DNA of 64,000 nucleotides, from assembly GCF_041886205.1 (NCBI RefSeq), contig NZ_CP169029.1; one strand, written 5' to 3'. The position numbers were made by a program. The DNA is from Escherichia coli (GTDB taxonomy: Bacteria; Pseudomonadota; Gammaproteobacteria; Enterobacterales; Enterobacteriaceae). This document shows positions 18,001-21,000 of the stretch, piece by piece; position 1 is the stretch's first letter, and each line of letters opens with the position of its first letter.

Positions 18001-21000
18001 GCACAATCGATAGGCAGTTTTTCTAATGGCTGTATTGTCGGCGCTGACACGTTGCCGATACAGTCCGAACATTATCAGGTCATGCGTACCGATCAGCGTC
18101 GCTATTTCGGTCACCCGGATCTGGTGATGTTTATCCAGCGTCTGAGTAGCCAGGTGAGCAATCTGGGCATGGGTACGGTGCTGATTGGCGATATGGGGAT
18201 GCCCGCTGGTGGGCGTTTCAACGGCGGTCATGCCAGCCACCAGACCGGACTGGATGTCGATATTTTTCTGCAACTGCCGAAAACTCGCTGGACCTCCGCG
18301 CAGCTCTTGCGCCCGCAAGCACTGGACTTAGTTTCCCGCGACGGTAAACATGTTGTCCCCACGCTGTGGAAGCCAGAAATTTTCAGCTTGATCAAACTCG
18401 CCGCCCAGGACAAAGACGTCACGCGCATTTTTGTTAATCCGGCGATTAAACAACAACTTTGCCTTGATGCGGGCACCGATCGCGACTGGTTGCGGAAAGT
18501 GCGACCCTGGTTCCAGCATCGCGCGCATATGCATGTACGATTACGTTGTCCTGCCGATAGTCTGGAGTGTGAAGATCAACCTTTACCGCCACCAGGCGAT
18601 GGTTGCGGGGCAGAACTGCAAAGCTGGTTTGAACCTCCAAAACCGGGAACAACAAAGCCTGAGAAGAAGACACCGCCTCCGTTGCCGCCTTCCTGCCAGG
18701 CGCTACTGGATGAGCACGTGATCTAATGGAAACGTTTAATAGCCTGTTTATGGTTTCCCCGCTGTTGCTGGGTGTTCTCTTTTTTGTCGCCATGCTGGCG
18801 GGATTTATCGACTCGATTGCCGGTGGCGGTGGGTTACTCACCATTCCGGCATTGATGGCAGCGGGGATGTCTCCGGCTAACGCGCTGGCAACCAATAAAC
18901 TGCAAGCCTGCGGCGGCTCTATTTCCGCCACTATCTACTTTATTCGCCGCAAAGTGGTTAGTTTAAGCGATCAAAAACTCAATATCGCCATGACCTTTGT
19001 CGGCTCAATGAGCGGCGCACTGCTGGTGCAATACGTTCAGGCTGATGTCTTACGGCAGATTTTGCCCATTCTGGTAATTTGTATCGGCCTCTATTTCTTG
19101 CTGATGCCAAAGCTGGGTGAAGAAGATCGCCAGCGCCGGATGTACGGTTTACCCTTCGCGTTAATTGCCGGTGGCTGCGTCGGTTTTTATGACGGATTCT
19201 TTGGTCCGGCAGCTGGATCGTTTTACGCACTGGCCTTTGTTACGCTGTGCGGATTCAATCTCGCCAAAGCCACGGCTCACGCCAAATTACTCAACGCAAC
19301 GTCAAATATCGGCGGTTTACTGCTGTTTATTCTCGGTGGCAAAGTGATTTGGGCGACGGGCTTTGTGATGCTGGTGGGGCAGTTCCTCGGCGCGCGCATG
19401 GGTTCACGACTGGTGTTGAGCAAAGGACAAAAGCTGATCCGCCCGATGATTGTTATTGTCTCGGCGGTGATGAGTGCCAAATTACTTTACGATAGCCACG
19501 GACAGGAGATCCTCCACTGGTTGGGGATGAACTAATGAACAGTACACACCACTACGAGCAGTTGATTGAAATTTTTAATAGCTGCTTTGCCGATGATTTT
19601 AATACCCGTCTGATTAAAGGCGACGACGAACCGATCTATCTTCCTGCTGATGCGGAAGTACCGTATAACCGAATCGTCTTTGCTCATGGCTTTTATGCCA
19701 GCGCAATTCATGAGATTTCGCACTGGTGTATTGCCGGGAAAGCGCGCCGTGAGCTGGTTGATTTCGGCTACTGGTATTGCCCGGACGGACGCGATGCCCA
19801 AACGCAAAGCCAGTTTGAAGATGTTGAAGTGAAGCCGCAGGCGCTCGACTGGTTGTTCTGTGTGGCGGCGGGATATCCGTTTAACGTCAGTTGCGACAAT
19901 CTGGAAGGGGATTTCGAACCGGATCGTGTGGTGTTTCAACGGCGGGTACATGCGCAGGTGATGGATTATCTGACAAATGGCATTCCGGAACGCCCGGCAC
20001 GCTTCATTAAAGCACTACAAAATTATTATCACACGCCGGAACTTACGGCGGAACAGTTCCCGTGGCCGGAAGCGCTCAACTGAAGCCAGCGCCACGTTTT
20101 ACAATGAGGAAAGAAGATGATCGCGGAGTTTGAATCACGCATTCTGGCATTAATCGACGGTATGGTTGACCATGCCAGTGATGATGAGTTGTTTGCCAGT
20201 GGGTATTTGCGTGGCCACCTGACATTAGCCATCGCAGAACTGGAAAGTGGTGATGACCACTCCGCTCAGGCGGTGCATACGACCGTTAGCCAGAGTCTGG
20301 AAAAAGCCATTGGTGCTGGTGAATTGTCGCCGCGTGACCAGGCGCTGGTGACCGATATGTGGGAAAACCTGTTTCAGCAGGCGTCACAGCAGTAAGTTGC
20401 GGCGTCTGTAGCACCATGCCTGATGCGACGCTTATCGCGTCTTATCAGGCCTACACGTCACACGTAGGTCGGATAAGGCGTTCACGCCGCATCCGGCAAA
20501 CACTGCGAGAGCAGATTACCCAGCCTTAACTGCTTTACCCTTCAACAATTTCCGCACCCATAGCCTATTCGGATATAACGCCGCCAGCGTACTGGCATCC
20601 ATCGGAATCGGTTCTTCACTCATCTGTGCCGCCAGAATCTCGGCGCACAGTGGGGCAGAACACAAACCACGCGAACCCAAAGCAGCAAGCATAAAGAGAT
20701 CGTCATAAACCGGCGCGCTTACCGCCTCATCTTTCTGCTCCGCCAGCGACGTATATTCCACGAGTGTTGCCTCATAATCAGACACGTTGCCTACCATTGG
20801 CAGATGATCGCGAGTGGCACAACGCACACCGCAGCGCGCCTCTTTATCACTGATATCAACCTCTTTTGCCCACTGCGCCTGCGGGAAACAATCAATCAAC
20901 CGCTGGCGATTCTGCTGCTGATCGTCCTCACTGTACGCTGTATCTTCGCTGCCGCGATGATAACTGGCACCAATACAATGGTGTTCATTCGCCGGATTTT

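Follow-up and report, generated by a model that had tools for sequence, protein, structure and literature searches.

A BIME-2-type REP pair, REP171, between the convergent genes yfcL and mnmC of Escherichia coli and its probable part in setting mRNA 3' ends

The genes yfcL and mnmC converge on a short intergenic gap within the window, by which we mean the whole 64-kb stretch of E. coli DNA analysed here. Over 20100-20800 the identity of the window is 100% with strain LHM10-1 (NZ_CP037903.1) and 96.4% with K-12, and gene coordinates were taken from the RefSeq annotation of LHM10-1. yfcL occupies 20117-20395 on the plus strand with its TAA stop codon at 20393-20395; mnmC occupies 20516-22522 on the minus strand and ends with a stop codon (TAA on that strand) at 20516-20518. 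The mechanical open reading frame of mnmC (20516-22582) reads 688 amino acids from a TTG, compared with 668 amino acids (2,007 nt, start at 22522) for the annotated gene. The gap itself, 20396-20515, is 120 nt long. An earlier note had placed a pair of inverted REP units at 20418-20498, between genes it described as convergent; the convergence is as described, and the pair is found at 20417-20498, within 1 nt of that proposal. The same note let the REP units fill the whole gap, which overstates their extent, as they take up 82 of the 120 nt and leave flanks of 21 and 17 nt.

Along the plus strand the gap reads yfcL TAA, gttgcggcgtctgtagcacca, TGCCTGATGCGACGCTTATCGCGTCTTATCAGGCCTAC, linker, GTAGGTCGGATAAGGCGTTCACGCCGCATCCGGCA, aacactgcgagagcaga and mnmC TTA. 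The left non-REP flank, GTTGCGGCGTCTGTAGCACCA, spans 20396-20416, so that the first REP starts 21 nt 3' to the yfcL stop codon. This unit (REP A, 38 nt) lies at 20417-20454 in minus orientation; its minus strand starts with 5'-GTAG and its plus strand ends in CCTAC. A 9-nt linker, ACGTCACAC, follows at 20455-20463, and the second unit (REP B, 35 nt, 20464-20498), inverted relative to REP A, starts with 5'-GTAG on the plus strand. The right non-REP flank (20499-20515) reaches up to the mnmC stop codon. A repeat finder reported both internal palindromes as well as the outer inverted repeat.

According to Ton-Hoang et al., 2012 (PMC3333891), REPs are imperfect palindromes of 30-40 nt with a conserved GTAG foot and belong to type y, z1 or z2. 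Formal alignment to a REP consensus, represented by the y, z1 and z2 queries that Durrant et al., 2024 (PMC11208160), give in their Methods, bore out the REP reading. REP A agreed with the z2 query at 34 of 37 aligned positions, the mismatches being confined to the loop, and with the z1 query at 29 of 37 aligned columns, gaps included; the reverse complement of REP B agreed with the y query at 33 of 35 positions. blastn-short E-values inside the window were 3.6e-7 for REP A and 8.8e-11 for REP B. A full-length degenerate REP pattern matched the window once, at 20422-20454, and matched none of 100 dinucleotide-preserving shuffles, and the tail motif CTTATCMGGCCTAC, with up to two mismatches allowed, gave four matches where 0.42 were expected. 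Five significant REPs are present within the 64-kb window, and the element belongs to a high-copy family, the median count of matching sites in an E. coli genome being 24-39 (39 for a 151-nt query over 5,425 genomes). The REP pair is real and lies far beyond chance expectation.

Both units have the length of a REP, lie entirely outside the coding sequences of the two genes and fold as REPs do. In 131-nt folds of either strand, each REP forms a separate hairpin, with energies of -55.1 and -54.1 kcal/mol for the two strands (z = -4.1 and -3.3). The z2 hairpin has 13 pairs, a 5-nt loop and a C/T stem mismatch; the y hairpin has 11 pairs, a 4-nt loop and a 2-nt AA/GC internal mismatch. Non-complementary bases of this kind in the stem are needed for binding of TnpA(REP), the REP-associated Y1 transposase, which cuts and recombines E. 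coli REPs and BIMEs in vitro (PMC3333891). The GTAG foot is conserved in both units, as CTAC at 20451-20454 (GTAG on the minus strand) and as GTAG at 20464-20467, and the 9-nt linker separates the CTAC end of one from the GTAG end of the other, the two ends facing each other.

The classification of Gilson and Bachellier, summarised by Ton-Hoang et al., 2012 (PMC3333891), distinguishes BIME-1, in which a z1 and a y REP are joined by a long L linker, in many cases with an IHF site, from BIME-2, in which a z2 and a y REP are joined by a short S linker, usually in tandem and in strain-variable copy number. On its sequence the yfcL/mnmC element classifies as a single BIME-2-type unit, namely a z2 REP, a 9-nt linker and an inverted y REP. 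It shares with BIME-2 the inverse arrangement of z2 and y and the short linker between GTAG and CTAC ends; tandem copies are seen at this locus in a few other strains, and the window has one. It departs from BIME-2 in being one unit and not a tandem array, in the z2 loop (TTATC where the consensus has TGGC) and in one stem substitution of the y REP (CCGACCTAC against the consensus CCGGCCTAC); its linker is called S by its length and position. The earlier note had also invoked IHF, whose sites are a property of BIME-1. REP171, as the element is named below, has in common with BIME-1 (RIP/RIB-type) elements the two inverted REPs, one of them y-type, but it lacks the z1 REP, the long conserved L linker and the core motif: a search for the IHF core WATCAANNNNTTR in all four REP-bearing gaps, 20396-20515 among them, found none. 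The z2 partner, the 9-nt linker and the missing core thus place the element with BIME-2, and its identity as an IHF-binding BIME-1, rejected on these grounds, retains next to no probability.

The same 82-nt REP-linker-REP sequence is present without change in K-12 MG1655, at the same locus, between the same genes and in the same orientation. There it is annotated as REP171 (2443790-2443869, 'Convergent, mnmC/yfcL'; Harris et al., 2026, supplement to bioRxiv 10.64898/2026.03.23.713779), which corresponds to window 20417-20496 when window positions are calculated as 2464286 minus the MG1655 coordinate, a conversion that we checked on the MG1655 alignment. As the MG1655 RefSeq record examined carries no repeat_region features, the names REP171, REP170 and REP168 were taken from these supplementary tables (bioRxiv 10.64898/2026.03.23.713779). 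Around the element the two strains differ by two substitutions in the left flank (TGTAGCACC in the window, TGGAGCAGC in K-12) and by one within the coding region of mnmC, immediately beyond the right edge of the gap. The reading of the pair as a BIME was therefore correct, and the element is an already known one: an ordinary, annotated copy of the most abundant intergenic repeat family of E. coli, whose members are palindromic and non-autonomous.

Rfam returned for this region only sub-threshold matches to RF02564 (naRNA4), one of 37.5 bits at 20467-20534 and one of 32.7 bits at 20379-20451. Such matches might suggest a small RNA like naRNA4, which is nucleoid-associated and acts together with HU on the structure of the chromosome. 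Neither match reaches the gathering score of 59.5 bits. Since naRNA4 is transcribed from a REP array, REP325, the match says no more than that the sequence resembles REPs; we consider a small RNA of this type very improbable. Annotating the element as a REP/BIME-2, equivalent to REP171, avoids confusion with a small RNA gene, another kind of terminator or an IHF site, and beyond correct annotation the finding has little significance.

The data on transcript ends all come from K-12, with its identical element, and were projected onto the window strain. In the SEnd-seq data of Ju et al., 2019, as re-tabulated in bioRxiv 10.64898/2026.03.23.713779 (Table 16), the yfcL/mnmC site is row 190 among 306 bidirectional sites with overlapping 3' ends, the overlap spanning 2443832-2443873; it is listed for K-12 in both log and stationary phase. 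Projected onto the window, the convergent 3' ends overlap at 20413-20454 and bracket the z2 hairpin exactly. By these tabulated data the yfcL operon RNA, on the plus strand, ends at about 20454, at the C of CCTAC, and the mnmC RNA, on the minus strand, passes the y hairpin and the linker and ends at about 20413, 4 nt past the z2 hairpin. The general statement of the earlier note that REPs mark mRNA 3' ends is thus borne out at yfcL/mnmC by the K-12 ends as tabulated. A scan of 19900-21000 on both strands for intrinsic terminators detected no site combining a hairpin with a U-tract. REP171 differs in this from canonical bidirectional intrinsic terminators: the flanks given in Table 16 hold one A on the 5' side and two U on the 3' side, and the A-tract/U-tract symmetry of such terminators is therefore missing.

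Two further K-12 data sets, again as tabulated, bear on the yfcL side. A Rho-binding (rut) peak from H-SELEX (data of Delaleau et al., 2022, in Table 15 of bioRxiv 10.64898/2026.03.23.713779; K-12 2443697-2443835) projects to 20451-20589 in the yfcL sense, on the plus strand, and shares 44-45 nt with REP171. A bicyclomycin-sensitive transcript that runs antisense to mnmC (Peters et al., 2012; K-12 2442731-2443800) has the peak at its start and projects to 20486-21555, also on the plus strand. These data agree with a model discussed by Dar & Sorek, 2018, in which Rho terminates transcription downstream, exonucleases trim the RNA back and the REP hairpin, by shielding the Rho-terminated transcript from these exonucleases, determines where the stable 3' end lies. 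Statistics for REPs as a class point the same way: some 60% of those in E. coli are located between convergent genes, REPs are present in 207 of 704 convergent gaps and they are contained in 78 of 306 bidirectional terminators.

The best explanation of these observations, and in our view a probable one, is that the hairpins of the REP171 BIME-2 set the 3' ends of both convergent mRNAs, with the help of Rho on the yfcL side. REP171 lies in the 3' UTR shared by the prmB-aroC-mepA-yfcA-epmC-yfcL operon and mnmC, and each REP, transcribed in either direction, folds as a stable G+C-rich hairpin without a U-tract. Such a hairpin would be no classical intrinsic terminator; the steady-state 3' end would be set by its blocking of 3'-to-5' exonucleases, which may well be what produces the mapped ends. 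On the yfcL side, Rho would stop transcription just downstream. With exonucleases blocked by the hairpin and transcription halted by Rho beyond it, the ends of the two mRNAs would flank the z2 hairpin, and there would be less antisense read-through from each unit into the gene opposite. The window strain, with its identical element, presumably shows the same 3'-end behaviour as K-12. This copy of the repeat was presumably generated, or is maintained, by TnpA(REP). A similar case is the REP325 array (yjdM-yjdN), the experimentally dissected model, which also lies in a 3' UTR, where it stabilises mRNA and terminates transcription in a partly Rho-dependent manner; REP171 likewise overlaps a Rho peak and would define 3' ends. 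The two differ in size and setting: REP325, the larger array, is flanked by tandem genes, REP171, a single unit, by convergent ones.

A role at the level of DNA is also conceivable, in which the BIME-2 would be a strong, transcription-independent gyrase site that removes positive supercoils between the convergent units. Gyrase cleavage sites are over-represented in BIME-2 in vivo, mostly in y REPs, and the signal increases when transcription is blocked (Sutormin et al., 2019); REP171 has a near-consensus y REP and convergent flanking genes. The enrichment, however, is limited to 'a subset' of BIME-2 elements, chiefly arrays of several copies like those at sucC-sucB and tldD-yhdP (Sutormin et al., 2019), and yfcL/mnmC has one BIME-2 unit only. 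The text-form supplements of that study contain no entry for yfcL, mnmC or the REP171 coordinate. The mention of gyrase in the earlier note is thus too broad for this element; as an expectation drawn from the BIME-2 class, a gyrase site at REP171 is possible and rather doubtful, and it would be compatible with the setting of mRNA 3' ends by the hairpins.

The locus varies among strains, and we surveyed its alleles in 5,426 complete E. coli genomes. The two-REP form of the window was present in 4,758 of them. A form with the y REP only, in which the gap (TAAgtaatgtGCCGGATAAGG...) shrinks to 55 nt from the 120 nt of the window, was found in 375 genomes, and in 200 the z2 REP is split by IS621; the element is in this sense dispensable in nature, which argues against an RNA role. 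A tandem duplication with four REPs and a 215-nt gap occurred in at least six genomes, a count confined to single-piece full-length matches, strain R32_14_1F included, since one-copy alleles align to both tandem copies and make a coverage-based count unusable. About 87 of the 5,426 genomes fall outside all counted allele classes. R32_14_1F thus carries two BIME units at the locus (2517-2731 of its locus sequence) where the window has one, and Escherichia sp. E1V33, which is not E. coli, carries three in tandem (4230-4540 of its locus sequence). For comparison across genera, genome contigs were scanned with a degenerate DNA pattern for the C-terminal end of YfcL; matches came from E. coli and Escherichia sp. 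E1V33 and from no other source.

The tandem alleles point to the unit that was amplified. The inter-unit linker of both E1V33 and R32_14_1F repeats part of the left flank (GGAGCACCAT), which indicates an amplified unit made of flank, z2 REP, linker and y REP; the 3' part of the left flank (GAGCACCAT in other strains), recurring between the tandem copies of E1V33, accordingly occupies the tail-to-tail linker position. The linker between z2 and y also differs in sequence among strains. In an alignment of 12 alleles the stems were near-invariant, with 99.6% of cells paired, and variation lay mostly in loops, linker and flanks. A single pair, in the y stem, had changed on both sides (C-G, T.G and T-A); 92 of 500 shuffles likewise gave such a two-sided pair, so that covariation among the 12 alleles was not significant and does not suffice to demonstrate selection on the hairpins.

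Several alleles alter the REP units themselves. The 55-nt y-only allele has no GTAG (MRSN346595, 597-651 of its locus sequence; SWHEFF_68), and in SWHEFF_68 the AA/GC bubble of the y hairpin has become GC/AT, as if its asymmetry had been flipped, with the loop unchanged. In strain 32F4 the y REP has lost, through a 4-nt deletion, its GTAG, which TnpA(REP) needs for binding. In strain CUVET18-1530 the z2 REP has changed from ATCAGGCC to ATCATGCC, which breaks both a stem pair and the IS621 target described below.

Variation of this extent could also be that of a selfish or neutral repeat copy without selected function, the 3' ends being a by-product of a stable hairpin. Presence, absence and copy number differ across genomes (1, 2, 4 or 6 REPs, or an IS621 insertion), covariation across alleles reached no significance, and TnpA(REP) cleaves and recombines REPs in vitro. 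The two-REP form has nevertheless been retained in the great majority of the genomes surveyed, with stems almost fully paired while linker, loops and flanks vary, and the y hairpin, at least, is kept in every allele seen. Expression is, moreover, higher in convergent gene pairs with a REP than in those without. We regard a purely neutral copy as a tenable minority view, below the role of the hairpins at mRNA 3' ends.

The insertions in the z2 REP fall at a defined sequence. The natural IS621 target ATCAGGCCTAC, which Durrant et al., 2024 (PMC11208160), described as recognised by the bridge RNA, lies at 20444-20454 on the plus strand, inside the z2 REP, and is the sole copy in the window. IS621 is a 1.3-kb element of the IS110 family with a bridge-RNA recombinase, and in strains EC18 (3345-4640 of its locus sequence) and 504211 it is inserted exactly at ATCAGGCCT^AC of the z2 REP, which corresponds to window 20452/20453. 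The population comparison provides a clean natural example of REP gain, loss, expansion and IS621 targeting at one locus, and the natural alleles could be used for testing the proposed role of REPs as terminators and stabilisers between convergent genes. The alleles (y only; z2 and y; two or three tandem BIMEs; IS621-split) change which hairpin caps each mRNA, and we speculate that the series might serve as a natural dial for the expression of yfcL, of mnmC or of both, and that the z2 REP may be a recurrent IS621 hot spot, the 200 split genomes then going back to more than one inherited insertion. Both ideas are rather unlikely to hold and, if true, would be locus-level extensions of published REP ideas.

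REP sequences occur elsewhere in the window. The earlier note had pointed to REP-like sequences after fabB and between yfbS and yfbR. At yfbS/yfbR (54771-54812) the sequence is indeed derived from REPs but only in part: it comprises two 5' half-arms of 13-14 nt, one y-like on the minus strand (54777-54789) and one z2-like (54797-54810), with a 7-nt spacer, GCTTATT, between them, and forms a short palindrome in place of a full REP. MG1655 REP168 is annotated there over 19 nt, equivalent to window 54771-54789 (bioRxiv 10.64898/2026.03.23.713779). The yfbS/yfbR sequence is also listed, in row 366 of the tabulated SEnd-seq sites, as a bidirectional 3'-end site.

Behind fabB (23908-23943) a REP is present, as had been noted; alignment to the REP queries revealed it to be single and degenerate. 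It corresponds to MG1655 REP170, window 23907-23942 (bioRxiv 10.64898/2026.03.23.713779). In our alignment it is a degenerate z2/y hybrid, agreeing with z2 at 28 of 32 positions and carrying TCTACTCCGACCTAC where CTTATCAGGCCTAC would be expected, and a tabulated K-12 Rho-binding peak lies 61 nt downstream. The REP (here 23899-23944) starts only 6 nt past the fabB stop codon. Liang, Rudd and Deutscher reportedly found in 2015 that translation of an upstream gene can drop when its stop codon is followed by a REP at a distance of no more than about 15 nt.

A second complete BIME, missing from the earlier note, lies at 33273-33358 between the tandem genes dedD and cvpA. Its z2 REP (33273-33309) agrees with the z2 query at 33 of 34 positions and ends in CCTGG where CCTAC would be expected. 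Across a linker of 14 nt follows the y REP (33324-33358), in inverted orientation, which agrees with the y query at 34 of 35 positions.
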